Positions 6,861 to 26,632 of a stretch of 38,658 nucleotides of DNA are shown here, piece after piece (position 1 is the stretch's first letter; the number at the start of each line of letters is the position of its first letter). Source of the DNA: a virus. Its lineage: Duplodnaviria; Caudoviricetes. The stretch lies in IMG/VR virus record IMGVR_UViG_3300025276_000075, positions 1 through 38,658 of that record, one strand, 5' to 3'. Made by a program: the position numbers and the translations under genes. The notes under the pieces are model-generated. The model ran no database searches and had not been told where the DNA came from. It saw nothing but the letters and a program-made list of their open reading frames with translations.

Positions 6861-7195
6861 GTTCCGTAAACCCGCCTCTCTGCTCGCTCACTTGCCAGCA
6901 TCGATTGCCAAATCTTGAACTCAACTTCAGCCGCCAGCATCTCGCTCTTTGCAGCCGCCAGCATCCCCTTAGCCTTACCTCTGGCAAGTCGAACCTCGTA
7001 CACAGACAGATCCTCGTCAGACGCCCTGAGTTGGGCAGCGTTGGTCTTTGCTCCGGCATGCTCAGCTCTCATCATCACGGTCGCGATTGTTCGCTTTTCA
7101 TCTGCGTCAGCCTTTCCCAACTCGTACTCGGCTTTGCCGACATTAGCTCCTGCGGCTCGAATATTCTTTGCAAAATCTTCTTGGTCCATCGTCAA
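6857..7195 (-). CDS. Coiled-coil hypothetical protein
   Basis: AGGAGG SD; helical Ala/Glu-rich sequence; coupled to neighbours. Confidence 0.75.
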   Translation of the reverse strand: MTMDQEDFAKNIRAAGANVGKAEYELGKADADEKRTIATVMMRAEHAGAKTNAAQLRASDEDLSVYEVRLARGKAKGMLAAAKSEMLAAEVEFKIWQSMLASERAERRVYGT

Positions 7196-9027
7196 ACCTC
7201 CTTTGTGTAATTAATGTATCGGCGAGTCTTGCCGTTCTTTCTGTCGCGGTACTGGCAGCATTGGGTATCGAATTCAAACCCAACCTTGCCTTCATATTGA
7301 CCGTTGCGATTCTTTAACACTTCTAAGTACATATCCCACTGCTTTTCAAATTGCTCGTCAGGCTCTTCACCTAACATTTCAGCCTGTTCAAGCTGTTCAC
7401 TTTTGCGTTTGTTTTTCCAAACAGAAAGAAATCCGTCCGCCAAGTCTGTAATCGATCCACTACCCTTAACGTCATACTTGTTTGGTGCTGAGTACTCTGA
7501 CTCACCCTTACGGACGTGGGTGACGATGAATACAGTGACAGGGAATGACAGTTTGAAATTGACCAGCTTCTCAATGAACTTTTGCTGACCCTCGTAGTCA
7601 TCCTGACGGACCATGTTCGTTAGACTGTCCACGATGAACGTGTTGATCCCATATCTCCGATAGGCGTATTCAAAGCAGGACATCAGGTCTTCAGGCTTAG
7701 GGGTAAGCTTGTCAACGAACAACCATAGGTTTGGGCACATCCACTCTAAAAGTTTCTTTCGGTATGGTTGTGGCGGAGTAGCACTGCCCGCTGCCTGTCT
7801 GACCATGCGCCCCATGGTTGATTTGGGTGTCATTTCCATCGACGCAATTAAGACCTTCTGATCTTGCTGCACGGCGTTAAGCGCGAGCTGGTTCAACCAC
7901 ATCGACTTCCCGTGTCCATTGATTCCGCAAATCCCCCAAAGCTCGTTAGGTCGAAATTTTATATCCTCTTCGTCAAGCTTTTCCCAGCCACTACCAAAAC
8001 CCTGCGTGTCATCCTTCTGGTTATCAAAAAAGTCATCGATGTCTGCTTCAAAATCCATGACAGAATGTAAGGTCTCTGGGTCTTTCCATCGCGCTTCTTG
8101 ATACGCACACTCCAACATCCACTTAGCTTGCTCATACCCTTGCTTCTGGAGTAGCTCATTGATGTCTTTGGTCGGAAGGTTCACTCTGTAACAACGGTCA
8201 CCCAATCGCTGCATGATTTCTGCGGCGGCTAGCTCACCCTGCTCATCCATATCTGTCGCGATAAGGATCTCTTCAAATCGCGCTAAATTCTCGTATTCGT
8301 GGGCGATCCACTTCGTTTGTTTGGCGCCTTTGCCTCCACCCATTGGGACTGAGAGGGCAGGGAACCCCAGTTCGCTACAAGCAATCGCATCCCATTCGCC
8401 CTCAGTAATCCAGATCTTTCTGGCTGTATCAGGAACGTTCTGCCAGCCAAAAAGAATGGGCTTCAGGTCTTTCTGAGTCGATGGGTTGCCGTTATGGTTA
8501 ATCGGCTTGGTCTTAAGAAATGTCTGCTTGCCTTGGGCATCGAAAAACGGGAACACAACATCCTGTCCACCCCTAGCGTCGGTCTCATATATCTTGTATC
8601 TGAAACATATCTCCCCTACGTCTTTGAACCCTCGCTTCTCCATATATTCATGAAGATGCTGGTGTTCGTTCCTTGGGGGAGGCGTAGGTAAGGTGTAGTT
8701 CTTTTTTTCCGCCGGAGCGACTTTTTTTGCGGGTGAATTGTCACGAATGCTGTAGCGTCTCTTCGCCCATTCCATCGCATCGACGAGCGTCATCCCTTGC
8801 GAGTACATAATGAGATCAAGCAGGTCACCACCTTCGCCTGTGGAAAAATCCATCCACTTGCCGCTCTGAGCGCCGTTGAGATAGACCGACATGCTTCTGC
8901 CTTTCTCTCCCTGAAGCGAGCCAATCTTGTAGCATCCACTTTCAAGACGACCATCAGGGTATAACTCGCTGCAAATACCCGTGGCGTGAGGCGCCAACTG
9001 CTGAACAAGTTCTTTGATATCCATCAT
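7192..9027 (-). CDS. Bifunctional primase-helicase (TOPRIM plus SF4/DnaB-like; T7 gp4/Twinkle-type)
   Basis: ITEGEWDAIA and ATDMDEQG (TOPRIM); GINGHGKS Walker A; FIVDSL Walker B; HVRK; KGSGSITDLAD; KNR. Confidence 0.93.
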   Translation of the reverse strand: MMDIKELVQQLAPHATGICSELYPDGRLESGCYKIGSLQGEKGRSMSVYLNGAQSGKWMDFSTGEGGDLLDLIMYSQGMTLVDAMEWAKRRYSIRDNSPAKKVAPAEKKNYTLPTPPPRNEHQHLHEYMEKRGFKDVGEICFRYKIYETDARGGQDVVFPFFDAQGKQTFLKTKPINHNGNPSTQKDLKPILFGWQNVPDTARKIWITEGEWDAIACSELGFPALSVPMGGGKGAKQTKWIAHEYENLARFEEILIATDMDEQGELAAAEIMQRLGDRCYRVNLPTKDINELLQKQGYEQAKWMLECAYQEARWKDPETLHSVMDFEADIDDFFDNQKDDTQGFGSGWEKLDEEDIKFRPNELWGICGINGHGKSMWLNQLALNAVQQDQKVLIASMEMTPKSTMGRMVRQAAGSATPPQPYRKKLLEWMCPNLWLFVDKLTPKPEDLMSCFEYAYRRYGINTFIVDSLTNMVRQDDYEGQQKFIEKLVNFKLSFPVTVFIVTHVRKGESEYSAPNKYDVKGSGSITDLADGFLSVWKNKRKSEQLEQAEMLGEEPDEQFEKQWDMYLEVLKNRNGQYEGKVGFEFDTQCCQYRDRKNGKTRRYINYTKEV

Positions 9028-10725: not shown

Positions 10726-11379
10726 ATGGACATGCTTACACGCGCTCACCTCTGGGCGACACTATCAAACATCGATGTAACACCCTTTTGTACTGAGACT
10801 GAAATTGTTGGGGACCAAGTCCTCACTTATCTGCCTTGGATGAAAGCCCATGAAATTATGATGGGTACATTTCCTGAGTATCATTGGGAATTCACCGAAG
10901 ACCCCACGGGTCGCGAATGCCACTATTTTGATGATGGTTCTGCCGAAGTCCGTTGTCGCATGACGATTGGCGGACAGACCAATATCACCTACCTTCCTGT
11001 TCATAGATCAGGCAAAGCAATTGCATCTCCTTCAGCTACAGACATCAATACCGCTAAACAGCGGTGTCGTGTTAAGGCTATGGGCGAATTTGGACTCGGC
11101 TACGGGATGTGGCTGTCATCTCAAATCAAAGAGATTGAAGACCAAAGTCGTTCTAAAACTGAACAAAACGCACGTTCAGAAACAAATGATGCAGATGCTG
11201 AGCGCCAAAAGGTTATTGCGATCTGGGACCATCTCAAGTTTGGGGATGCCAAAACGCTCAGTGAAGCAACAAAGCTGCATGACAAGTTTAAACGAGGTCT
11301 AACTAATAGAGGCTTAACAGACAGTACTGGCAACTGGGAATCTCTTTGTAAGGATAAAGGTTGGAGGGCTAGCAAATGA
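10726..11379 (+). CDS. Single-strand annealing protein (DUF1071/Sak, Rad52-like)
   Basis: LTYLPWMKA...V.C..TI.G......LPV...DINTAKQRCRVKAMGEFGLG; adjacent to exonuclease and SSB. Confidence 0.85.
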   Translation: MDMLTRAHLWATLSNIDVTPFCTETEIVGDQVLTYLPWMKAHEIMMGTFPEYHWEFTEDPTGRECHYFDDGSAEVRCRMTIGGQTNITYLPVHRSGKAIASPSATDINTAKQRCRVKAMGEFGLGYGMWLSSQIKEIEDQSRSKTEQNARSETNDADAERQKVIAIWDHLKFGDAKTLSEATKLHDKFKRGLTNRGLTDSTGNWESLCKDKGWRASK

Positions 11380-12404
11380 GCCTAGCGATTCAAGGATCAC
11401 CTGAGTGGCATCGGATGCGAGCGGGCAAGATCAAAGCATCTGTCTGCGCTGCGCTCGAAGGCAAGCACCCGTACATGAAGCCTGCTGACTTGGTTCGTCA
11501 AGAAGTCAGGGCTTTGGCTGGCGCTGAGTCAGAATTTAAAATGGTGCCTGCCGTTGCCCACGGGCAAATGATGGAAGACCACGCACGAATCTTCTTGGAA
11601 GGTCTACAAGACTACACTGTCGAAGAGACAGGTCTTGTTGTTCATCCTAAGTACGACTTTATCGCAGCATCGCCAGATGGACTTGTCGGTCTCGATGGTT
11701 GCGTCGAAATCAAGTGTCCGTTTCCTCAGTACACCAAGACGCCTTACTCGATCTTTGCGCCTAAACGAAGCATGTACCTGATGCAGGTCTACATGCAGAT
11801 GGAAGTGCTGGATGCAGAGTGGTGCGATTTCATTTGTTACTTAGCGAAGAACGAAACTGCTGAGCCGCAATACACGCTGGAACGAGTTCCCCGAAAAGAA
11901 GACTTCCTAACGGAGCTGCTGAGCCGCAAGTTTTTACCTCAACCGATGAAGGGAACGATCAGCCGACTTGATCTTTATCAATGCTGGTACAACTGGATTG
12001 CCGAGCAGCATCGAGATGAAGTCGCTCGCGCTGATCACGTTAAAACGATCGAAGTTAACGCGCCTGAAGTCATCAAGACGGATGAGGAGCTGAACCGACT
12101 GGGGGCAATGCAGGACAGGATTGCCGACATCAAGTCGCGGATTGGTGACGACCTACAAACCTTAGATGTGCTGGGAAAGACCAGTGAGTCGCTAAAAAAA
12201 GATATCGCTGAGCGGTACAAAGGTTCAGTCAGTAATGGCAAGACAACGGTCAAGGTGATCATGAAGACACCGTCGATCGACTACCGTCAAGCCTTTGAAT
12301 TTCTGGGCGGCGAAGATGAAGTGTTAAACCAAGATGAGTCCCTTTCTTCCTTCAGAAGAACTACGGGCGCAATGCAAGTACAAATACAACACGGAGAAAA
12401 GTAA
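11376..12404 (+). CDS. YqaJ / lambda-exonuclease family protein
   Basis: QGSPEWHRMR, HG...E..A, ASPDGLV, VEIKCP, QVYMQM, WCDF. Confidence 0.92.
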   Translation: MSLAIQGSPEWHRMRAGKIKASVCAALEGKHPYMKPADLVRQEVRALAGAESEFKMVPAVAHGQMMEDHARIFLEGLQDYTVEETGLVVHPKYDFIAASPDGLVGLDGCVEIKCPFPQYTKTPYSIFAPKRSMYLMQVYMQMEVLDAEWCDFICYLAKNETAEPQYTLERVPRKEDFLTELLSRKFLPQPMKGTISRLDLYQCWYNWIAEQHRDEVARADHVKTIEVNAPEVIKTDEELNRLGAMQDRIADIKSRIGDDLQTLDVLGKTSESLKKDIAERYKGSVSNGKTTVKVIMKTPSIDYRQAFEFLGGEDEVLNQDESLSSFRRTTGAMQVQIQHGEK

Positions 12405-13599: not shown

Positions 13600-14568
13600 A
13601 TGGATAGAATCGTTACGTTCCGAGAGTGTGCTGAAGATTATCTTGCTGCACCAACTGCAAAGTCGGGCAAGAGAAAGAAGCAGTACACAATTGATGTAGT
13701 GAATGAGCTTATTGCTCGGTGGGGTGACATCCACATCAAAGAGTTTGAGAAGAAGTACCTGCTGACCAAGTTTTTTGGTGAGCTGGCAAAAAGGAACAAC
13801 CGCTGGACGGGTGAGCCGGTCTCTAATGGTTGGGTCAATACCTACAGAACGTACTCTCGCGCTGTTTTGATACATGCCAGAGATGAGATGGAGATTATTG
13901 ACAGGGTGCCTCGGTTTGAGAACCTGCCAGAAGAGCAGCGGGAGTTGTACTTAACACCAGTACAGTGTCGTGAGTTGATGCGGTGGCTAGATGAGTTACG
14001 AGCCGACATGGTCGAGTTTGCATTGTGTTGCGGACAACGCAACAAGACAATCAGGCTGCTCAAATGGGCGTCGATATCTGAGGACTATACGGTGCTGCAT
14101 CTGGCGGGTAAGGATGCAAAGAACGGGCGTACCACCTCGTTCCCGCTGAACAAAGACGCTCAGCGAATACTGAAGCGTCGATGGGAGATAAAGCAGAAGC
14201 TTGAGAAGGCGTATCCGTACCTCCTCAAGAGTAAGCCGAAAGGGATTGAGTATGTGTTTGTTCAGGAGCATCGAAGTGTTCGCAGTAATGGCAAGCCGTT
14301 CTCGCAGACTTCGTTAACGAATGACACTTGGCGACGAGCTGTATCGAATGCAGGTCTACCGAAGGGAGTTGTGTTTCATACATTGAGGCATACGTTCGCG
14401 AGCTGGCACATTATGTCGGGAACAGGTGAGACGACGTTGATGGCACTTGGTGGCTGGCTTTCGTCTAAATCTATGCAGCGGTATACGCACTTGAACCATG
14501 AGCATAAATCAAAGGCGGCTAGTAAATTGGAGGGCATGGTTAAGCAGTCGGGATTGAGTCACAGATAG
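13600..14568 (+). CDS. int: Tyrosine recombinase / phage integrase
   Basis: CGQR (R), KNG (K), FHTLRHTFASW (HxxR), LGGW (H/W), RYTH (Y); GGAG SD. Confidence 0.93.
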   Translation: MDRIVTFRECAEDYLAAPTAKSGKRKKQYTIDVVNELIARWGDIHIKEFEKKYLLTKFFGELAKRNNRWTGEPVSNGWVNTYRTYSRAVLIHARDEMEIIDRVPRFENLPEEQRELYLTPVQCRELMRWLDELRADMVEFALCCGQRNKTIRLLKWASISEDYTVLHLAGKDAKNGRTTSFPLNKDAQRILKRRWEIKQKLEKAYPYLLKSKPKGIEYVFVQEHRSVRSNGKPFSQTSLTNDTWRRAVSNAGLPKGVVFHTLRHTFASWHIMSGTGETTLMALGGWLSSKSMQRYTHLNHEHKSKAASKLEGMVKQSGLSHR

Positions 14569-17165: not shown

Positions 17166-20100
17166 TTAGTTCTCTTCGTTTAGCAACCGCTGTATTAAAG
17201 TCCATCTGTCTACGAACTGTTTGCTCTTCTGTTCGCCAAACAATACGTCTGACTTCACTATAGAGTTCTTGAGCGTACTGTCCGACATCGTCCAAGCTGA
17301 AGCTCCTCCGCCTACCAGCGCTCTGGCATCTTTCTTAGTAACACCATTAGACCGAAGGACTTGCATTGCCTGAGTTTTGCTGAGACCCGAGTTCATTGCA
17401 GCGTTAACTAGATTCGCCATATCTTCAAAGGTCTCGCGTCTCGCTGTAGATGCTCTACCGAATGCTTCTCGTATATCGCTATCCGATACCTCGTTAGGGT
17501 CTCTGAACACAGAGGTCAGCAGGCTAGTTGACTGACGTTTACCTTCTGAGAACTCATAAGCCTTAAAGTGCAGTGCAGTCTTGGGGTCGAAGGTAGTCTT
17601 ACGGAAACCTACAAACGCTGCCATCTCATCGCCAACATCGTAAGCCTTGCCGCCCTTAGATATCTCCCCGCCCATCGCTTTAGACATGCGGCGACCGTTC
17701 TGTATAAGACTTGGTCCCATACCTCTCTCGAAGTGCATGTAGGTAGCGACAGCTTTATTAGTGAAGGTGTCAGCCTCGTTATAGACCTGACCGCCTGACG
17801 TTTTCTCGTTTGATATAAACTCTAAGATGGTGTTGGTCGATATATCCCAGCCTAAGAATGGCTTAAGTATTTCAACACTGGCGTCGAGAATCGCATCAGC
17901 CGCTGGCTGATCACGTAGCAGGGCGTTCAGTGGGCGCTTCATCAGTGCATACGGGTCAAGGTGAGTAAGGTCTAAGTACTCTAAGCGACCTTGATCATCT
18001 CTACCTGTTACCAGTATGTTTGAGTTCTTAGCCCAAGGAGCTGCCATCAACTTGATAGCCTCTTCCTCTTCTTCCGAAACATCAAACGCTGACATAGCCA
18101 TTGCTTGAGCTGCATACACGCCCGCACTAACCATACCTATGCCTGCCATGCGCTTAAGAGCAACAGGTCTCATGTCTGGATCGGCTAGGTCTTCACGCAA
18201 GTACTTGATCATGTTCGCTTGTGTACGAACAATTTCTGCGGGAAAAGAAACAAACGTGCCAGCAAGAGGAAAGCGTCTTAGCTTTTGAGGCAGGTCACCA
18301 ATCAGTGAGTAAGTTGGGTAGGTGTCACGAATACGCTTAGCTGATTTGATCTCAGCATCTTCGCGTGACATGCCCTTGTTATCCATGAAGTTGATGACCT
18401 CATTCTCGAAGCCAACAATCTTCCAGAAGTCATCACCATACTGATAGAAGCGAGTAGCGTTATCAAAGAATGACTTGATCATTCCTGTGCCTGATACCCA
18501 CTGCTCTGCGTTAGTGTCCTTTAACAGATCTATCATCTCGCCAGCGTACGGGTTGTCGTGTACTACACCTAGCTTTTTCAGGCGCTTTAGGTACTCAACG
18601 CCGTCACCTTGACCTGTTCTGTAGCTACTGGTTACATCAATCGACTTGCCTATTTTAGACCAGTTAAAGTGCCCATTTGCCACAGTAAACAGAGATGCAG
18701 ACATCCAGTTACGAGCCATAGTAGTAGGCGCGATTACAGTCTTACCGTACTTGACCATACCGTTGATCTGGATAACCGTCTTATACAAGCCTCCTAACTG
18801 CTCCTTATCTAGGGCGTCTCTGAATGCTTGCTCTATCTCGGGGAATGTATATAAGCCGTTGAGGGGGGACATGGTTTTTGACCCGACTTCCGCAATTTTT
18901 TTCGTTGCGCCTACCGGAGCATCCGCCTGATCAAACAGGAATACACCCTTGCCGTCCTTGAGTACTTGGTTAAGGAACCTGTCGTTGTAGACAAGGCGAG
19001 ACATCTTGGTGGCAGACTTAGCGAAGTTGATTCGCGCATCCTTGTACTCACCTAAAAGCGCTCGTATCTCTGGGGCTATATCTTTTCTTTTCTTCAGGAT
19101 AGATAGGTCTTTTGCCCCTAGCTTAGACTCGGCAATAAACGACGACATATCATCGAAGGCAGTACCTTCTTTGAGGATGGTGTTGATTACCTGATCTGGG
19201 TTAGTAGTACCCTGCTCAACAAGGAAGTTTCTAGCCGCCAAAACGATTTCTTCGGGGACTTCTTTGTTCCAGTTCTTATCGTCAAAAGCTCTGTGGCTTC
19301 TGTTGGCATACTTGCCCATGTTGTTGACAACAATGCTTAACAGCTCGCTCTTGGCTAGCGCTTCATCGTTACCCTCAGACTTCAGCTTTTCTATATCTGA
19401 GTTAAGTATCTCAGCATAGTCAGCTGACATCTTGTCGATGTAGTTACGCATTGCTCCCAGAGCTTCCTTGATATCATTAGGTAGATTAGAAGCCATAACT
19501 TCTGCCGCTGGGACTTGCATTGCTTTGTCCAGCACAGCAGCCTGTGATGCGTCTATCTCACCGAAGTTGTTCTGAACCGCTTCATCAAACAATCCAACCA
19601 TCTGTCGGATGTCCATCTCTACAGCACCGAACTCGCCATCACGCTCGATCTTTGAGTCAAACGCTGTCTCAGGCAATAGACCTCTGGAGTAGAAGTTCTT
19701 CTGGAACCACTTCTTAAAACCTGAAGCTGCAAACCCTGCTGCTGCCTTAACATCTTTATCTTTGACTGCGTCGATTACTTGACTGCCGTCTGATCCAGCA
19801 CGAACCGATGCAATCAAGTCTTCTTCCGACATGATCTCTGCGGCTGTACTTGTGGGGGCAGTTACAAAGTCCTCTTCTGGAGGTCTTCGTGGAGGTGAGT
19901 TTAGCTGATCTGCAGAAACTCCGGCAGCATCGATTCCAGCTCTGCTTCCAGCGGCTTCTTGTGGTCTAGCGTCCTGTCTGGGTACGCTACCATCAGATAG
20001 TTTTCTCTGGTAACTGGTTCCTGATACTTCGTCAGGTACTGTAAAATCGGATCGCTCCCAATCAGGTCTTTGTATTCCTCCGGAATGCTCATTTATTCTA

Positions 20101-23100
20101 GTCCTTGCCTCTTCGAGGCTTAATTTACCCTTACTATACTGGTTCCAAACGCCCTCAACAAACAAGACATTCTGATCTTGGGCTTTGTATGTAGAGGTGA
20201 ATAACCCTCTAACCGCTTCCCAAGTAATAGACTGCATCTCTCTGGCAAGCACGCCTCTGTCGGCTGCTGCCTGACGATACGCTTCTTCAAATATAGAATA
20301 TGTGCCACTGTGTCCAGTGATGCTCGAACTTGAGGCGCCTTTACCAGTGCCGAAGTTATGGCTAACCTCAAGCGAATCCCCAGCTAGAGGTTTTAATAGC
20401 CCAGCCGCGACCGCGTGAGTGTCAATGGTCACAAAGCCGTCAGTGGAATCAGGGTCAAATATATTGTTGTAGAAGTTCCTGACCTTGTTTTTTGATCCCA
20501 GCGACCGCGAGACGTTATCTTGAGACGGGTCTAGCAGGACAGAAACAGCCTTGCCTATCTCGTTAAGGGAACCCCAAGCAACTTTTGACTGAGTCTTCCC
20601 GTCAGCATTGACCGCGTAGTCAAGGAATTTTCCGTCGGGAGAAACCAATCGATAAGACGGGTCGTTATAAGTCTGGTCCCAAGTCCTTATCCACATGCCC
20701 AAAACAGCTGCGGAAGCATCATCATTGATAAGCTCCTGCAAAGATCTATCACCGATAACGTCCAGCATTTTTCGGTTACTAACCCGACCCTTTCTGCTCA
20801 CTTCTTTGTGAAAATATATTTCTTCAGCCCTAGCCTTCATCTGACCGTCAAAAGATGACGATTGTTCGCTATGGAATATGTCCATTACACGCTCCGCTAG
20901 GCTCGCGTTCTGATACCAGTCCTTTTGTGGCGAAAGGTTAGCGGCTGCAGCGCTTGCTTGAGCCAATGAAATCCCATGCTTGTCAGCCATTCTCTGAACT
21001 ATTTTGTTTGCGCCCTTGTACCACTGCTTTGATGTAGCTCTCGTAACTTCGGGTACAGCGTCATAAATGCTAAGAAGGTTTTCTTTAACGTGACCAATAA
21101 GCATGCTAGCAGCGCTCTTATCCGAGAGCCTCTGCTGCTTTTTAGTAAGGTTGTTGTACTTCTTGACGAGAAGCATGTTCTTTGAAAACATGACTTCGTT
21201 ATCGACAAAGCTATCGTAGTCGTTGACTAAAACATTTGCGATTGGGTCTTCTGTGGATCGCTTCGCTGTAGGGAACCTAGTGCTTACCGGAGCAAAAAGA
21301 ACATCATCGTCAAAGCTCTCCAGATCATCCGTTGGGTCGAAGTTGTCGCCGCCGGTTTGATCATCAATCCTGTTGCCTTGATTCTCTGCTAGTTGTACAG
21401 CTCGTCCATCCCCGTCCCCAGCTTCACGTTGGGTCGGTTCTCCCAGTCCTTGACTGGCTTGTTCCGCATCAAGGCTACTTCCGCCATCTCCTCCAGATCC
21501 TTCTTGCTCCTGAACTTCAGTGCTTCCGCGCTGGGTAGGTGACCGAACGTCTCCCTGTACTTCTTGAGGTTGCCCGTTAGCTTCATTGGTCCGAATGTCA
21601 GCTTCGCCATTTTGAATAGTCTCCGTTGGTTTTGTTCTAAGCAGCTTCTTTATATGCTTATACGTTCTTGGTGCTTGTTCCTGAAGTAACTCAGGGCTAG
21701 TGTGAAAGATGGCAAACGCTTGGGCGAATGCTTCTTTCTTGATGCGATCTACTTGACCCGCTATATTCTGGGGTTCTGAATTAGCTATCCATTCAAATGC
21801 TGGTCCGAATGGGTATGCTAACTCTTGACCTAACTCTGTGCCACTTAAATAGTTTTGACCCAGCTCATAAATAACTGGTCCCATCTCGTAAGTAGCTGAA
21901 TTCATGCCCAGCCCATCTATCTCTAAAGAAAAGTTTGGCGAGTTGTTTGTGTGACCAGTGCCTACATCAAAAGCATGACCGATTTCATGAGCAAGATTAA
22001 ATCTAAGTTCGATAGCAGAATCGCTGCTATTGTCTTTGTCGGCTATAAGTTCCTTAACTCTCGCGCTATTTAACGTTATCGCTTTAGAGCTTTTCAGGTA
22101 CGACCCATCTACCTGCCTGTCCATCTGGCTATCGGTGTGCGAATAAAAGCCGCTTACATAATTCATTACACGCTTCGGGAGACCTGCACCTAGCAGATCA
22201 ACTAGAGCGTGTTTAATCTCATCAGCCTGAACACCCTCGGCTACAGTAATCGTATTACCGTTCTGCATGACAACTTCAGGAGACGCAAACAAACTGTCTA
22301 TGCGACTCTGATCAATAGGTGACCTGTTAGCGCCCTGAGAATCATTGACGTCAGAGATAGCTTGAGCCAATGGCTTCATGTTAGGGCGCGTTACATTCTC
22401 TGTATAAGGAACCGCAGGCAAGTTGTTCATAGAGCCTAAAGGAATGGTTAGGCTCTTAGTAGCAATCTCCTGAATGCCCTCTACTGCAGACTCTGGGTTA
22501 GGCATTGACTGAGCGATCTCTATAGCTTGAGATGCCGGAACACTGTCTGGGATATTGTCTTCATCAGACTGCTGTATTACCTGTTTCTGGATATTGGCAG
22601 GAAGGTCATCCAGTTCTACTATAAGCTGGTTGAAGTCAGGGGCAGGGTTCTTTTGGTTATTGATCCTAGCTACTACTTCTGGAGTCCTGATAGTTTTCTT
22701 TGCGCCGTTCTCATCCCTTACAGCTAGCGACAAAGGATTATAGTCAGCGTCTCGAATGATTCGGGTGAGGGTGTATTTTTTACCGCGCAATTCAAATTTA
22801 TTGTTGTCATCAATCTGAACGTCTTGCTCGAAGACTAGATCACCACCAGTAGGCACTACACCTAACTGTTCTGGTGATTGATACTCACCACTCTCAATGA
22901 GAACGTCGCCGTTATCTTGGGTGGCTACATAGAAGCCGTCGTCTTTCTTAAGTACTGGTCCTTTGTTGCCATTGTAGTCAACGTCCTGACCTACAAGCTC
23001 TTCCATTCTTGGGGTGATAGACTCTGGCAGATTGCCACCAAACACTGGAGGCTCTTCAACTACAGGCTCTGGCTCTTTGTCTTTAGGTATTCTTGTTGTC

Positions 23101-24482
23101 TCACCTAAATTGCCCAGCTCCATCTGGAAGATTTCTTTAACCTTCTCTCGAACGGCAGGAAGCCCATCGACTTGCGCCCTTGCTTTGACTCTAGCTTCGG
23201 CTTGCGCCGCCTCTGGGTCAGACGCTTCTCTGCGCTCTGGAAAATCGTCAACTTCATCTCTAACTTGCTCGGGAGACTTGGGGGCAATAGTTGTTCTTGC
23301 AGTTGGGAGACCTAGCGCCTTAGCTCTTGCGGCTTGAACTTTTTCTCCACCCCTGTCAGTATTTTCATACTGCGGCTGATCTTCGACAGTCTCATTTTGA
23401 TCTTGAGCCTGCTCTTCGTCTTGAGCGACCTCTGGAGAGCTTTCTGCAGGCTTGCCGTTTAAAGCATTCTCATCTAGGTTTTGCTTTAACTCTGGGTCTT
23501 TAGTGACAGCACCAGTAACGCCGCCAATAGCTCCACCACCAATGGCACCAGCTACAAACGCATTAAGGTATTGAGATCGGTTCTCTTCGTCGAATAGACG
23601 ATCAATGAAAGCTTCTTCTATGCGAGGGTCACTCTGACCTCTGACCAACTCCAAGGTAAAATTCTGTATAATCTCCTGCGACATCTCGGTAACGCCTTCG
23701 ATACCGGACACCTCGGCTGCTTGTCTAAATGCGCGACCAATGACTGATTGTTTTTTGCTTATGTTTTCAGCTATCTCTTGGGTAGCTTTACCATACAGGT
23801 TTTGCGGAAGGACACGCTTTAAGACTTTCATGGGCGCCCAAGCGTCGAACACGCCAGAAACTAGACCCGTAGCAAGCGCTGCAACGGCAGCTTCTTCACC
23901 AGTCTCATCAAAGATTCTAGTAAAGGATTCACCCGCGCCCATCGCTGTACCGAATGCGGTTGCGCCTATCATCTGACCTTTTAGCCCAGTCTTGCCTAAA
24001 GCCTCTCGACCTACAGCTGATTGTGCGTACTGCCTTGACGCTGCACCCTTCGCCATTCCTTCAGCGTTCTTTTTGATCAGAGCTTTTGCGCCTTGATGGA
24101 TAGCTACCTTCTTCGCAACAGCACCGCCAATAGCACCAACACCACCGCCACCAATAAGGCTAGGTATAATGTTGCCTACGATAAATGCGGAATAATTGGC
24201 AAGGTCTCCGATACCGTCAATGTCTTCTAGCCTTCCGACATCAGCAGCGTTCTCGTTGGCTTCATCCATCTGCTCGTTGAAGTAATCCATCCCGTCTTCA
24301 AACCACGAGTCTATGCCCAGCGCTGAACCGGCTAGTGCCTTTGCTCCACCACCAAGTGCCTGCAACTGATCTACTCCAGAGCCGAAGCCTTTGGAGAACT
24401 CATTTAATATGCCGGAATCTTCATCGGCGTAATCAAATTCTTCATCGCTCTCAAACGAGCCGCTATTGACAAATAAAGCCAT
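17166..24482 (-). CDS. Giant polyvalent internal virion / DNA-ejection protein (2438 aa) with zincin peptidase and HhH-glycosylase-like domains
   Basis: Last of the internal-protein cluster; Gly/Ala hydrophobic N-region; LAHEIGHAFD...KEAFAQAF (HExxH plus distal E, ~21975-21989); WY...LSPQKDWYQN...KVRNFYNNI...VTIDTHAV...YRQAA...MQSITW (~20110-21280). Confidence 0.85.
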   Translation of the reverse strand: MALFVNSGSFESDEEFDYADEDSGILNEFSKGFGSGVDQLQALGGGAKALAGSALGIDSWFEDGMDYFNEQMDEANENAADVGRLEDIDGIGDLANYSAFIVGNIIPSLIGGGGVGAIGGAVAKKVAIHQGAKALIKKNAEGMAKGAASRQYAQSAVGREALGKTGLKGQMIGATAFGTAMGAGESFTRIFDETGEEAAVAALATGLVSGVFDAWAPMKVLKRVLPQNLYGKATQEIAENISKKQSVIGRAFRQAAEVSGIEGVTEMSQEIIQNFTLELVRGQSDPRIEEAFIDRLFDEENRSQYLNAFVAGAIGGGAIGGVTGAVTKDPELKQNLDENALNGKPAESSPEVAQDEEQAQDQNETVEDQPQYENTDRGGEKVQAARAKALGLPTARTTIAPKSPEQVRDEVDDFPERREASDPEAAQAEARVKARAQVDGLPAVREKVKEIFQMELGNLGETTRIPKDKEPEPVVEEPPVFGGNLPESITPRMEELVGQDVDYNGNKGPVLKKDDGFYVATQDNGDVLIESGEYQSPEQLGVVPTGGDLVFEQDVQIDDNNKFELRGKKYTLTRIIRDADYNPLSLAVRDENGAKKTIRTPEVVARINNQKNPAPDFNQLIVELDDLPANIQKQVIQQSDEDNIPDSVPASQAIEIAQSMPNPESAVEGIQEIATKSLTIPLGSMNNLPAVPYTENVTRPNMKPLAQAISDVNDSQGANRSPIDQSRIDSLFASPEVVMQNGNTITVAEGVQADEIKHALVDLLGAGLPKRVMNYVSGFYSHTDSQMDRQVDGSYLKSSKAITLNSARVKELIADKDNSSDSAIELRFNLAHEIGHAFDVGTGHTNNSPNFSLEIDGLGMNSATYEMGPVIYELGQNYLSGTELGQELAYPFGPAFEWIANSEPQNIAGQVDRIKKEAFAQAFAIFHTSPELLQEQAPRTYKHIKKLLRTKPTETIQNGEADIRTNEANGQPQEVQGDVRSPTQRGSTEVQEQEGSGGDGGSSLDAEQASQGLGEPTQREAGDGDGRAVQLAENQGNRIDDQTGGDNFDPTDDLESFDDDVLFAPVSTRFPTAKRSTEDPIANVLVNDYDSFVDNEVMFSKNMLLVKKYNNLTKKQQRLSDKSAASMLIGHVKENLLSIYDAVPEVTRATSKQWYKGANKIVQRMADKHGISLAQASAAAANLSPQKDWYQNASLAERVMDIFHSEQSSSFDGQMKARAEEIYFHKEVSRKGRVSNRKMLDVIGDRSLQELINDDASAAVLGMWIRTWDQTYNDPSYRLVSPDGKFLDYAVNADGKTQSKVAWGSLNEIGKAVSVLLDPSQDNVSRSLGSKNKVRNFYNNIFDPDSTDGFVTIDTHAVAAGLLKPLAGDSLEVSHNFGTGKGASSSSITGHSGTYSIFEEAYRQAAADRGVLAREMQSITWEAVRGLFTSTYKAQDQNVLFVEGVWNQYSKGKLSLEEARTRINEHSGGIQRPDWERSDFTVPDEVSGTSYQRKLSDGSVPRQDARPQEAAGSRAGIDAAGVSADQLNSPPRRPPEEDFVTAPTSTAAEIMSEEDLIASVRAGSDGSQVIDAVKDKDVKAAAGFAASGFKKWFQKNFYSRGLLPETAFDSKIERDGEFGAVEMDIRQMVGLFDEAVQNNFGEIDASQAAVLDKAMQVPAAEVMASNLPNDIKEALGAMRNYIDKMSADYAEILNSDIEKLKSEGNDEALAKSELLSIVVNNMGKYANRSHRAFDDKNWNKEVPEEIVLAARNFLVEQGTTNPDQVINTILKEGTAFDDMSSFIAESKLGAKDLSILKKRKDIAPEIRALLGEYKDARINFAKSATKMSRLVYNDRFLNQVLKDGKGVFLFDQADAPVGATKKIAEVGSKTMSPLNGLYTFPEIEQAFRDALDKEQLGGLYKTVIQINGMVKYGKTVIAPTTMARNWMSASLFTVANGHFNWSKIGKSIDVTSSYRTGQGDGVEYLKRLKKLGVVHDNPYAGEMIDLLKDTNAEQWVSGTGMIKSFFDNATRFYQYGDDFWKIVGFENEVINFMDNKGMSREDAEIKSAKRIRDTYPTYSLIGDLPQKLRRFPLAGTFVSFPAEIVRTQANMIKYLREDLADPDMRPVALKRMAGIGMVSAGVYAAQAMAMSAFDVSEEEEEAIKLMAAPWAKNSNILVTGRDDQGRLEYLDLTHLDPYALMKRPLNALLRDQPAADAILDASVEILKPFLGWDISTNTILEFISNEKTSGGQVYNEADTFTNKAVATYMHFERGMGPSLIQNGRRMSKAMGGEISKGGKAYDVGDEMAAFVGFRKTTFDPKTALHFKAYEFSEGKRQSTSLLTSVFRDPNEVSDSDIREAFGRASTARRETFEDMANLVNAAMNSGLSKTQAMQVLRSNGVTKKDARALVGGGASAWTMSDSTLKNSIVKSDVLFGEQKSKQFVDRWTLIQRLLNEEN
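19901..20092 (-). CDS. Nested overprinted small protein B (63 aa), candidate immunity/inhibitor of the glycosylase-like domain
   Basis: +1 frame within the giant gene; AAGGA 9 nt before ATG; globular-looking sequence (DPILQYL...PVTRENYLMVAYP...AELESMLPEFLQ) while the main frame is disordered linker. Confidence 0.6.
   Translation of the reverse strand: MSIPEEYKDLIGSDPILQYLTKYQEPVTRENYLMVAYPDRTLDHKKPLEAELESMLPEFLQIS
21389..21610 (-). CDS. Nested overprinted small protein A (73 aa), candidate immunity/inhibitor of the zincin domain
   Basis: +1 frame within the giant gene; GGAG 10 nt before ATG; helical-looking sequence (LKKYRETFGHLP...DLEEMAEVALMRNKPVKDW) while the main frame is Gly/Gln/Glu-rich linker. 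Confidence 0.6.
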   Translation of the reverse strand: MAKLTFGPMKLTGNLKKYRETFGHLPSAEALKFRSKKDLEEMAEVALMRNKPVKDWENRPNVKLGTGMDELYN

Positions 24483-24505: not shown

Positions 24506-26026
24506 TTAGATGGGAACGTTGTAGAAGTTAACGGGAATAGAGGGATGTTCAATCTTCACTATCCCTAGCACTTCGTTCTTCCATAGCTCCCACGGCTTTT
24601 TATCTTCGCGCTTCATTACTATTCTGGTCTTATTAGTGTTTTCATTCTTAACTTCAGAGAAGTACTGACCAGCTCGCAGAAGCTCTGACCTAGTAAGACT
24701 TCTACCCAGCTCATCTGCCAACTCTTTCACTTCAGGAATATTTGCGTTCATCTTGATCATCTTTTCAGCACTGCTTGTTGGCTTTATTGCATTCTTAGAC
24801 GGATCGAGAACGGAGTACTGAGCGTATCGCTCAAGTTTGTTAAAATGCTGAGGATGTCCCAGTTCTGCGTTTGTCAGCCCCCTAACAGGACTTGGTTCCC
24901 CTGCCATTGTGCCAACAGCATATTTGCCTTGGAAATTTGTAATATAGTCGTTGGTTTTAGCTTCTAAACTGCCCGTACCGTTTCGTGCGTCATACAGTCT
25001 GGTTGCACTCTGGTAGATCTCATCTTCAAACTGCCCTACATATTGAGCGTATTTGAAATACCCAGAAGCTGCTTTCATTAAGTCGTCTGTTGCAATACCC
25101 AAGGGTACTGCGGGTAACGGCTTTCCGTCTTTATCAGCAACTGGATTACCATTGTCATCTAATTCTTGACCGCTTCGACCGCTACTTAATGGCGCGTTAT
25201 ATACCGTAATTTCGCCAGCCGCATTTTGCACTGTTACGTCAACCGTTCCTGTTAACACCCCGTCAACAACCTGCCAGTCAGGAGCTACTTCTTTCCCTGT
25301 TATTTTCCAGCCTTTACCATTTAGGTTTCCCGCTTTTGGCGTGTTTTGTTCTGTAAGCTCAGTGCCAATTTGCCGCATGTTGCTAGACCGTACAAATGTA
25401 TTAATTATGGGGGTCAAGCTTTCTCGGCTTGCGTCCTCACCGTTCTGCATTGCAGTCATCGCTTCTAGGAAGGCAGCGCCGTTAGCTTTGGTATCTGGGT
25501 CCACTGCGGCAAACGGACTTAGTAGACCGCCATTTGCTTTGTCTAAAAGCTCGTCTGCACGAGCATTCCATTCAGGGGTTCTAGCCGTAGCCGACTTACC
25601 CGTAGCTATATGGTTTATAAACGCTTGCGAATTTACGGCAATATCCTCTTCTTTTCTGATATTAGATAAGCGTTCTGCTTCTGTTTCGGTCTTTTGAGTA
25701 AGAGCGGCACTTTGAGCGTCAAGCAATCCCGCCCGAGAAGTATTTTCGATCTGATTCAGATCAAGCTGCGTCTTGTTGTTTTTTGCTGCGAGAAGTTTTG
25801 CTTCGGCATCGACGCCTCTTATACGGTTTAGCTCAACCTGATTATCAGTCTGATTTTTCCTGTATAAAGCCGTAGCATCCCGATCAAGATTATATCTTTG
25901 GGTCTGCATGTCCCGATCAAGATCGCCTTGGCGCTTCTGCTCATCTAGTCTTTTATTGTTAAGCGCTCTATCCTGAACATCACCGATCAGCCCGAAGCCT
26001 GATTTGAAACCGTCTGCAAAACTCAT
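24506..26026 (-). CDS. Internal virion / ejection protein
   Basis: MSFADGFKSGFGL N-terminus plus charged coiled coil; position in the ejection cluster. Confidence 0.7.
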   Translation of the reverse strand: MSFADGFKSGFGLIGDVQDRALNNKRLDEQKRQGDLDRDMQTQRYNLDRDATALYRKNQTDNQVELNRIRGVDAEAKLLAAKNNKTQLDLNQIENTSRAGLLDAQSAALTQKTETEAERLSNIRKEEDIAVNSQAFINHIATGKSATARTPEWNARADELLDKANGGLLSPFAAVDPDTKANGAAFLEAMTAMQNGEDASRESLTPIINTFVRSSNMRQIGTELTEQNTPKAGNLNGKGWKITGKEVAPDWQVVDGVLTGTVDVTVQNAAGEITVYNAPLSSGRSGQELDDNGNPVADKDGKPLPAVPLGIATDDLMKAASGYFKYAQYVGQFEDEIYQSATRLYDARNGTGSLEAKTNDYITNFQGKYAVGTMAGEPSPVRGLTNAELGHPQHFNKLERYAQYSVLDPSKNAIKPTSSAEKMIKMNANIPEVKELADELGRSLTRSELLRAGQYFSEVKNENTNKTRIVMKREDKKPWELWKNEVLGIVKIEHPSIPVNFYNVPI

Positions 26027-26035
26027 GATAAATGC

Positions 26036-26632
26036 CTAATCAAATAACTTGTTTAAAAGAAACGCTACACCTAAGCCGATAGCTACTGGTCCCGCTAGTG
26101 TGGCTAGACTAGCCATTGTTCCTGTGCTCCCTGCGGCTAGGTTTGCGGCTGCCAAATTTCCGGTGGCAGTTGTTGCGCCGCCTGCGCCTACTGCCGCTGT
26201 GCTGCCTGTGCCTACTGCCGCTGTGCTGCCTACTGTCGTTGTGCTCGCGTTTAAAGCCGCTGCCGCATCCGCAGTTGACGCGACGTTGCTTAAGGCGCTG
26301 CTGGCTGCTTCACCTGTAAGAGTCTCGGCACCCACAGTTGCAGGAGTAAAGGAAAGCCCTCCACCCTGTAAGCTTGCAGTTCCAGACCCTTGTATTGAGC
26401 TGTTGAGCGTTCCAACAGCATCAGTAGCGGCTTTTCCAGCCTGTGCAACTTTACCCGCACCAACCATTCCGCCAACGCCTGCAGCTGTGCCATAAGTCTG
26501 AGATTCGGCGGCAGTCTTCTGCGCCTCAATACCCATTCTCTGCTGATTTTCAACAGACTCAGCTCTGGCGACCGCACTCAGACCTTTAGAGCCAATGCCT
26601 CGTAAGCCTTGACCTACCGCAATCATTGTCAT
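26036..26632 (-). CDS. Gly/Ala-rich internal virion (pilot-like) protein with C-terminal membrane helix
   Basis: Composition; C-terminal GPVAIGLGVAFLLNKLF. Confidence 0.7.
   Translation of the reverse strand: MTMIAVGQGLRGIGSKGLSAVARAESVENQQRMGIEAQKTAAESQTYGTAAGVGGMVGAGKVAQAGKAATDAVGTLNSSIQGSGTASLQGGGLSFTPATVGAETLTGEAASSALSNVASTADAAAALNASTTTVGSTAAVGTGSTAAVGAGGATTATGNLAAANLAAGSTGTMASLATLAGPVAIGLGVAFLLNKLFD

Follow-up and report, generated by a model that had tools for sequence, protein, structure and literature searches.

Small genes read from the same strand as a larger gene, out of its frame and from a start of their own, are exemplified by Rz/Rz1 of lambda and by comS in srfAB, and Rz1 binds the product of its host gene. 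Among phage-borne toxins, the MuF proteins carry a short open reading frame (ORF) that is read as an immunity gene behind 89.4% of 191 toxin genes, according to the main text of PMC5576092. The polyvalent proteins presented in the main text of PMC5512222 are giant multi-domain phage proteins whose metallopeptidase (MPTase) is proposed to self-process the protein or to cut host proteins. Here we analysed a 38,658-base virus record (IMGVR_UViG_3300025276_000075; this whole stretch of DNA is called the window) in which a 2438-aa polyvalent virion protein, the carrier (17166..24482, minus strand, an ORF matching PHROG 22602), contains two enzyme-like domains, each accompanied by a small gene in the +1 frame: gene A behind a zincin-like metallopeptidase and gene B behind a DUF7178 domain. 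It is practically certain that A and B form real dual-coding cassettes with the carrier, and the two small proteins are probably cognate inhibitors of the injected enzymes, with B lying over the active site of DUF7178 in the predicted complex and A likely acting on the zincin in the same manner.

Like the MuF toxins of PMC5576092 (main text), the locus combines a phage structural protein, a variable enzyme domain and then a small ORF (<150 aa), and the likeness extends to DUF7178 relatives of terminal layout (17 of 77) and to some that lie near portal or terminase genes. Unlike them, the carrier holds its two enzymes internally rather than at the C-terminus, follows tail-fibre and internal-virion genes instead of adjoining portal or terminase, and has its partners overprinted in +1 inside an open carrier frame; a Pfam scan of the whole carrier, with E up to 1, returned DUF7178 and ATLF only and no MuF domain (PF04233/PF06152). 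The window carrier is therefore not a member of the MuF class, though it works like MuF toxin-immunity pairs, and the word 'glycosylase' is absent from the main text of the MuF paper. With the polyvalent proteins, as far as the main text of PMC5512222 describes them, it shares giant multi-domain build, an HEXXH motif with a downstream Glu, variable enzymes and proposed delivery at infection; zincin and DUF7178 are indeed unrelated enzyme domains within one 2438-aa protein. That main text contains neither 'overlap' nor 'glycosylase', and none of its passages on 'immunity' that were examined mentions nested partners. Experimental precedent for the inhibitor role comes from a Bacteroides prophage with the Bxa ADP-ribosyltransferase, Bsi and BAH, a polymorphic prophage enzyme neutralised by a binding immunity protein; the enzyme is a different one, and the abstract of that work mentions neither nesting nor a giant ejection protein (PMC11699363). 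Rz/Rz1 and comS/srfAB are single fixed pairs, whereas the domain-plus-partner cassette described here recurs, can be swapped and comes with six or more partner families. The literature searched, which contained few subscription papers and no supplements, yielded no account of partner genes nested in proteins of this kind, and no paper there names DUF7178, for which the supplementary files on polyvalent proteins may use another name.

Gene A (21389..21610, minus strand, over carrier aa 958-1031) encodes a basic 73-aa protein of three or four helices, and is preceded by a GGAG motif resembling a Shine-Dalgarno (SD) site 10 nt 5' of its start (21621..21624, minus). Gene B (19901..20092, minus strand, over carrier aa 1464-1527) encodes an acidic 63-aa protein, with an SD-like AAGGA 9 nt 5' of its start (20102..20106, minus) and a +1-frame TAA stop immediately 5' of its ATG. 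The coordinates, strand, lengths and frame that a sequence-only reading of the window had assigned to both genes proved exact, as did the GGAG-N10-ATG and AAGGA-N9-ATG arrangements, and A and B are the sole SD-bearing ATG/GTG ORFs of at least 35 aa in the carrier's two other frames. The same reading held that the carrier turns into linker over exactly these spans. Its hydrophobic fraction indeed drops to 0.11 over A (1st percentile of 70-aa windows) and 0.17 over B (7th percentile), against 0.29 overall, but these are not the only such stretches: a third low-complexity linker (23120..23590, minus, carrier aa ~300-450) has +1 stop-free runs of 48 and 68 codons without an SD-ATG, holds no SD-bearing nested ORF and bears no sign of selection, so that low complexity alone proves nothing. 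Nor is each start placed right at a domain end, as had been proposed; A does lie behind the zincin and B behind DUF7178, but B begins ~11 codons inside the end of DUF7178, and the carrier's invariant Trp (aa 1475) falls within the B span. An open +1 frame over 60 codons has a chance of ~9%, and +1 stop-free runs of 87 and 75 codons occur elsewhere in the carrier gene. Openness by itself is thus not rare, and the proof of A and B rests on their relatives. Neither small protein matched a Pfam or PHROG family; the model of A alone was weak (predicted local distance difference test, pLDDT, 64) and a fold search with it returned nothing above Z 2.7. The RNA data, two runs of one sample that gave six short contigs, were uninformative on expression.

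Selection acts on the nested frames. Between close pairs, differences at nested codon positions 1/2/3 amounted to 0.031/0.031/0.118 for B and 0.037/0.020/0.081 for A; the domain body wobbled in the carrier frame, with 0.029/0.013/0.148. For A as for B, each of the four divergence bins showed higher amino acid identity of the nested protein than of the carrier over the same bases; the alignments were guided by the nested protein, a procedure whose bias affects the distant bins only. Over A, the ratio of nonsynonymous to synonymous differences (pN/pS) was 0.35 in the A frame vs 1.66 in the carrier frame (82 non-independent pairs). Conservation confined to the main frame, one of the outcomes that the sequence-only reading had named as contrary to its proposal, is contradicted by the higher conservation of the nested frames over the same bases. 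Another, interruption by stops, did not occur either, as even relatives of only ~30% identity keep the +1 frames open. About ten other families of nested +1 ORFs were tried and rejected, the carrier frame being the more conserved one.

Each small gene keeps to its own domain among relatives. In a set made up of the best 80 of 530 confirmed viral DUF7178 loci, B was present at the domain end in 79, in 78 of them in the +1 frame; the remaining one (L064) has a broken +1 copy and a whole copy further on, and the sole B-less locus (L045) is cut by the contig end. A six-frame scan of these 80 whole loci (12,687 segments) placed B at the domain end only, plus the one extra copy in L064, and all 11 loci retrieved with B had it behind DUF7178. 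Likewise, A was nested in +1 in 18 of 20 zincin loci, and lay behind HExxH in all 16 A loci examined once 4 near-duplicates were removed from 20. The expectation that homologues always follow the same domain type was therefore borne out in these loci for both genes, and extends to the variants C-F described below. An SD-like 4-mer precedes 62 of 77 B starts, compared with 58 of 968 (6%) other +1 ATGs, and 38 of the 44 A starts examined; in 13 of the 77 loci, and in the window likewise, an in-frame stop stands at most 2 codons 5' of the B start. Twenty close relatives of B were retrieved from the protein collection, and B forms 608 clusters at 50% identity; the count for A is 57. Searches elsewhere were mostly negative: nothing matched when 50,697 annotated phage records were searched by tblastn with B and with the zincin, the carriers of phi18:3 and HTVC027P contain no A, no B and no SD-bearing nested ORF whatever, B occurs in the seed genome only among 401 genomes of one class, and A was not detected in samples of 401 and 301 genomes from one order (the samples overlap and had no positive control).

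The zincin-like domain (carrier aa 742-956; 21615..22259, minus) was recognised through Pfam ATLF (E 2e-4, under its cut-off). It contains HEIGH at aa 832-836 (starting at 21989) and a candidate third ligand, E917, and H832, E833, H836 and E917 are invariant in 4 of 4 aligned sequences; HEXXH with a Glu in a later helix is the motif by which the MPTase of polyvalent proteins is recognised, and the domain fits it at the sequence level. DUF7178 (carrier aa 1065-1475; 20058..21290, minus; Pfam PF23802, E 9e-26) is predicted to adopt an HhH-GPD N-glycosylase/lyase fold, in a confident model (pLDDT 89.7). Its top fold matches are HhH-GPD enzymes, namely Thermotoga OGG (3n0u: Z 7.9, root-mean-square deviation (rmsd) 3.9, 183 residues aligned), QNG1 of queuine salvage (7u07: Z 7.9, rmsd 4.8, 224 aligned), AGOG (1xqp: Z 6.6, rmsd 4.9, 198 aligned) and endonuclease III; this superfamily accounts for the top four rows and for the majority of those with Z of 5 or more, and the top Foldseek match was Pa-AGOG (probability 0.82, E 0.19). 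A Lys and a downstream Asp are catalytic in bifunctional glycosylase/lyases. DUF7178 carries such a pair, K1333 (20484-20486) and D1354 (20421-20423), invariant in 52 of 52 domains and present in 33 of 33 more distant loci. As in OGG2/AGOG and QNG1 the two residues are 21 apart, and DUF7178 departs from those enzymes in its low identity (8-12%), its large insertions and its embedding in a virion protein. DNA bases would be the likeliest substrate, and a nucleotide or RNA is possible given the QNG1 match.

For B, the proposed pairing with its upstream domain was approached by complex prediction. ESMFold2 gave B with DUF7178 a score of 0.89 (0.89, 0.89 and 0.90 in three runs), compared to 0.00 for the best of 3 controls, and placed B over the active-site cleft of the domain; in the benchmark, 116 of 157 solved complexes and 2 of 215 mismatched pairs came up to the mark, counts that are only approximate for the alignments used here. 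The runs shared at least 95% of contacts, with a partner pLDDT of at least 86. The predicted interface joins the conserved AYP motif of B to the invariant SPQK residues 121-122, 239-247, K269 and D290/T291 (domain numbering). We know of no similar solved complex, and very probably, judging from the model, B binds DUF7178. The charges of the partners are opposite in both cases (B -4.4 vs DUF7178 +2.5; A +4.0 vs zincin -8 to -17). For A, it is the pairing and this opposite charge that make binding to the zincin likely.

The DUF7178-B cassette occurs in several layouts. Of the 77 viral loci assigned to a layout, 17 have a carrier that ends 22-52 nt past the B start and 36 have one that ends just past B (one of these being a contig end), and in 24 the carrier runs on; in 3 genome loci B is a separate downstream gene. 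These layouts indicate that the cassette exists in a buried form as well as in the usual form of a terminal pair. On a quick tree of 56 rows (midpoint root), terminal and nested states are intermixed and strong branches force 2-3 changes; since that tree has no reliable root it gives no direction from terminal to nested, and insertion in mid-protein, as the sequence-only reading would have it, is one possible order of events. In homologous carriers, four other domains with a similar Lys...Asp motif occupy the DUF7178 slot, each with a nested family of its own in +1 to the carrier and behind its own glycosylase-like variant: C (L015:4416-4604) in 13 of 13 cases, D (L016:8607-8747) in 25 of 27, E (L014:2627-2797) in 11 of 11 and F (L109:7207-7386) in 9 of 10, the 3 exceptions being orphans. 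These counts were taken over 242 loci, duplicates included, with profiles built from 3-6 of those loci; F and E are barely above carrier-frame conservation (0.71 vs 0.68 and 0.71 vs 0.67, respectively). Because the profiles come from the same loci and the margin of F and E is slight, the C-F families are less secure than A and B. Only the F variant matched Pfam DUF7178, and the profile of the LDRIQ variant did not match that of DUF7178 (E 0.55), so that for the domain variants C, D and E kinship is argued from the slot they share and from the spacing of the motif; the LDRIQ variant aligned weakly (E 1.1) with PDB 3fhf over the same Lys/Asp motif. Some C and D proteins (L139:2884-3144, L143:7035-7313, L144:6425-6688, L229) share a ~40-aa C-terminal unit (FVVP...YP.AS.E.LA..LKY) that may be a seventh partner family joined to them by fusion; at these places the carrier has one more domain. 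Other fusions were seen for B, which is joined N-terminally to a zeta-toxin domain in P0142, follows the DUF7178 tail in frame in P0063, and is repeated in tandem in P0033 and P0056.

Copies of A were also found without their enzyme. Homology to A yielded 61 metagenome loci, or 60 once the window's own record was left out; A is nested behind HExxH in 45 of these, and the other 15 lack an intact zincin frame. In these 15 orphans the A frame is whole and the zincin is absent or broken by stops; within the A span, stops interrupt the carrier frame in 8 of 15 and the A frame in none. Relative to the nearest nested relative, A-frame pN/pS was 0.08-0.44 in 9 of 11 comparisons, with one pair identical and one saturated at 0.73, and part of this divergence is older than the capture. 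The orphans neighbour genes for IstB, IS66 transposase, integrase, AlpA, HNH/DUF3427, PQQ dehydrogenase, enoyl-CoA hydratase and tRNA; L204 and L209 hold two A copies adjoining IS21/IS66 genes, and L216 has metabolic neighbours and a tRNA. Partners of different families are pooled in L207 (425-972; A and D), in L229 (tandem A and D near an integrase) and in L230 (A and F near AlpA). In L229 (2950-3906 and 5101-5370, minus), a 314-aa protein opens with two A-like units. Several partner families are thus gathered without a toxin near mobile-element genes, in the manner of the acquired interbacterial defence (AID) arrays outlined in 10.1101/471110, where toxin-less immunity genes are pooled across families; as presented there, AID guards against type VI secretion toxins, whereas the orphans stem from genes for phage virion proteins and retain a dead carrier frame. 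A partner that is kept without its enzyme and pooled with the partners of other enzymes fits an inhibitor and not a chaperone. Some orphans may be satellites or decayed prophage.

Taken together, the open nested frames, their conservation, the strict pairing and the predicted B-DUF7178 complex support the effector-plus-inhibitor cassettes that the sequence-only reading had suggested. In the mechanism we propose, ribosomes would start internally on the late mRNA that also serves the carrier, so that inhibitor would be present wherever the carrier is made; B would keep a base-excising enzyme off the replicating phage DNA and A would hold the protease back in the producer cell. Unfolding of the carrier on its way through the tail would then leave behind or strip the inhibitor, and the enzymes would act in the next host. 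Overprinting on the linker would allow a mid-protein position for a toxin-immunity cassette, and its exchange as a single unit, with the carrier frame unbroken, and other genomes that capture the inhibitor alone may blunt the injected enzymes.

A number of observations weigh against this interpretation. Profile sequences had come from 4 members of the 80-locus DUF7178 set and from 5 members of the 20-locus zincin set. The loci also repeat one another in part (77 of them yield 65 distinct B) and their pairs are non-independent, and the two zincin loci without A are the weakest, partial matches of the 20. Among 33 more distant DUF7178 loci (30 genome loci and 3 phage records), 18 had a clear B, 4 a weak match to it and 11 none, the latter with K and D intact and including the cultured phage CRP-738; B is therefore not obligatory, or not always recognisable, for DUF7178. 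Rhodobacteraceae phage LS06-2018-MD07 gave a B-like match (E 7e-5) in nested position. In cultured phage vB_Pun_Y3 there is no SD-bearing nested ORF behind the HExxH domain. The orphans are metagenome contigs found by homology to A, in ~8 groups, and four of them (L194, L195, L200 and L201) may be decayed prophage. The fold match of DUF7178 is middling, as its best Z of 7.9 can be reached by unrelated helical models and the Foldseek E was 0.19, and the DUF7178 profile gave 0 matches against PDB sequences. Finally, an enzyme that excises bases would have to leave the phage's own DNA untouched on entry, and the data offer no explanation for this. Some of the loci involved deserve separate mention. 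Two of the 11 B-less loci (L151 and L169) have B-unrelated, SD-bearing +1 ORFs of 50-60 aa at the place of B, possible replacement partners. In Roseobacter phage CRP-738 (L178:5873-8380), the DUF7178 protein is gp40, encoded two genes past the portal, where MuF genes lie, with K and D intact and no B. A ParB-like giant protein of Pseudoalteromonas phage vB_Pun_Y3 carries a 45-aa SD-bearing +1 candidate over a linker (L244 ~2300-2440; aa ~768-813 of the part examined).

Strict pairing and a predicted complex would suit any tight partner, and the in-frame DUF7178 tail-B fusion (P0063) would agree with small proteins that serve as chaperones, packaging adaptors or activating subunits rather than inhibitors. 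We consider such a helper role unlikely, as B lies over the putative catalytic Lys and Asp in the predicted complex, a helper subunit leaves unexplained the intact, domain-less orphans pooled across families, and 11 of the 33 distant loci do without B. A different emphasis, compatible with the preferred explanation, is that the inhibitors serve mainly in kin immunity, a prophage or resident phage shielding its cell from the enzymes of sibling virions, as proposed for MuF toxins. The integrase in the window (13600..14568), the polymorphic glycosylase slot with its five variants and the pooling of orphans as in immunity arrays all speak for it, but the genes lie deep inside a late structural gene, and promoter-like sites are at chance level (13 vs 10.5 expected), the 2 kb upstream of A or B containing none on the coding strand; we regard this as a possibility, though a rather doubtful one.

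Phage inhibitors of host glycosylases do exist, Ugi being an example, and B is acidic and widespread (608 clusters), so the small proteins might be anti-defence factors against host glycosylases or zinc proteases of the same folds that merely travel with the domains. Every domain variant, however, has its own unrelated partner family, the two being swapped together, and the model favours binding to the adjacent phage domain, which renders this alternative highly improbable. Least credible is that the +1 frames are no independent genes, and either are entered by a frameshift that yields shortened fusions of carrier and partner or arise as a by-product of how the linker is composed. Speaking for it are the near-constant +1 frame, one fused protein (P0063) and the commonness of chance open frames of such length; against these stand the SD-like sites (62 of 77, with a 6% background), the in-frame stops just before the B start in 13 of 77 loci and the window, the free-standing copies and orphans, and the selection on the nested frame. 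We accordingly retain inhibition of the injected enzymes as the probable function of A and B.

The carrier itself is likely ejected into the host; its C-terminal scaffold matches gp123 of Cellulophaga phi18:3 and its gene stands in a similar triad. The conserved scaffold (aa ~1560-2438; 17166..19802, minus) is homologous to gp123 with 27% identity over ~710 aa, and aa 1713-2421 match the virion structural protein family PHROG 22602 (E 2e-65). In phi18:3, gp123 is annotated as structural by tandem mass spectrometry and is preceded by structural genes of 227 and 499 aa. Upstream of the carrier lie genes of 198 and 506 aa (24506..26632, minus), and the resulting small, medium and giant triad (198/506/2438 aa) resembles gp120/gp121/gp123 of phi18:3 in size and order alone. 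The window further encodes primase-helicase, integrase and tail-fibre genes (Pfam, PHROG). The tyrosine integrase (13600..14568, plus; PHROG E 9e-40) indicates that the phage may be temperate, and a DnaB-primase fusion (7192..9027) and a RecE-like exonuclease (11376..12404) are also present.

For phage biology, these results offer a rule for reading giant virion proteins, in which a conserved +1 gene behind a domain marks a likely harmful enzyme together with its likely inhibitor. With that likely inhibitor supplied, otherwise unclonable domains become testable, and at least six families of small proteins, dropped by gene callers whenever the carrier is intact, come into view. Also indicated is that phages deliver effectors of a glycosylase-like class, of which there are five or more variants. 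The cassettes show how a toxin-immunity pair can enter mid-protein without breaking the protein. Cells that keep phage inhibitor genes would have a possible route of defence, and we put forward only tentatively that the inhibitors were captured for that purpose. Equally tentative is the wider picture in which podovirus-like phages inject modular enzymes, including base-excising toxins, each leashed by an out-of-frame inhibitor, and bacteria or satellites pool the stolen antidotes as an anti-phage defence that may drive the swapping of cassettes.

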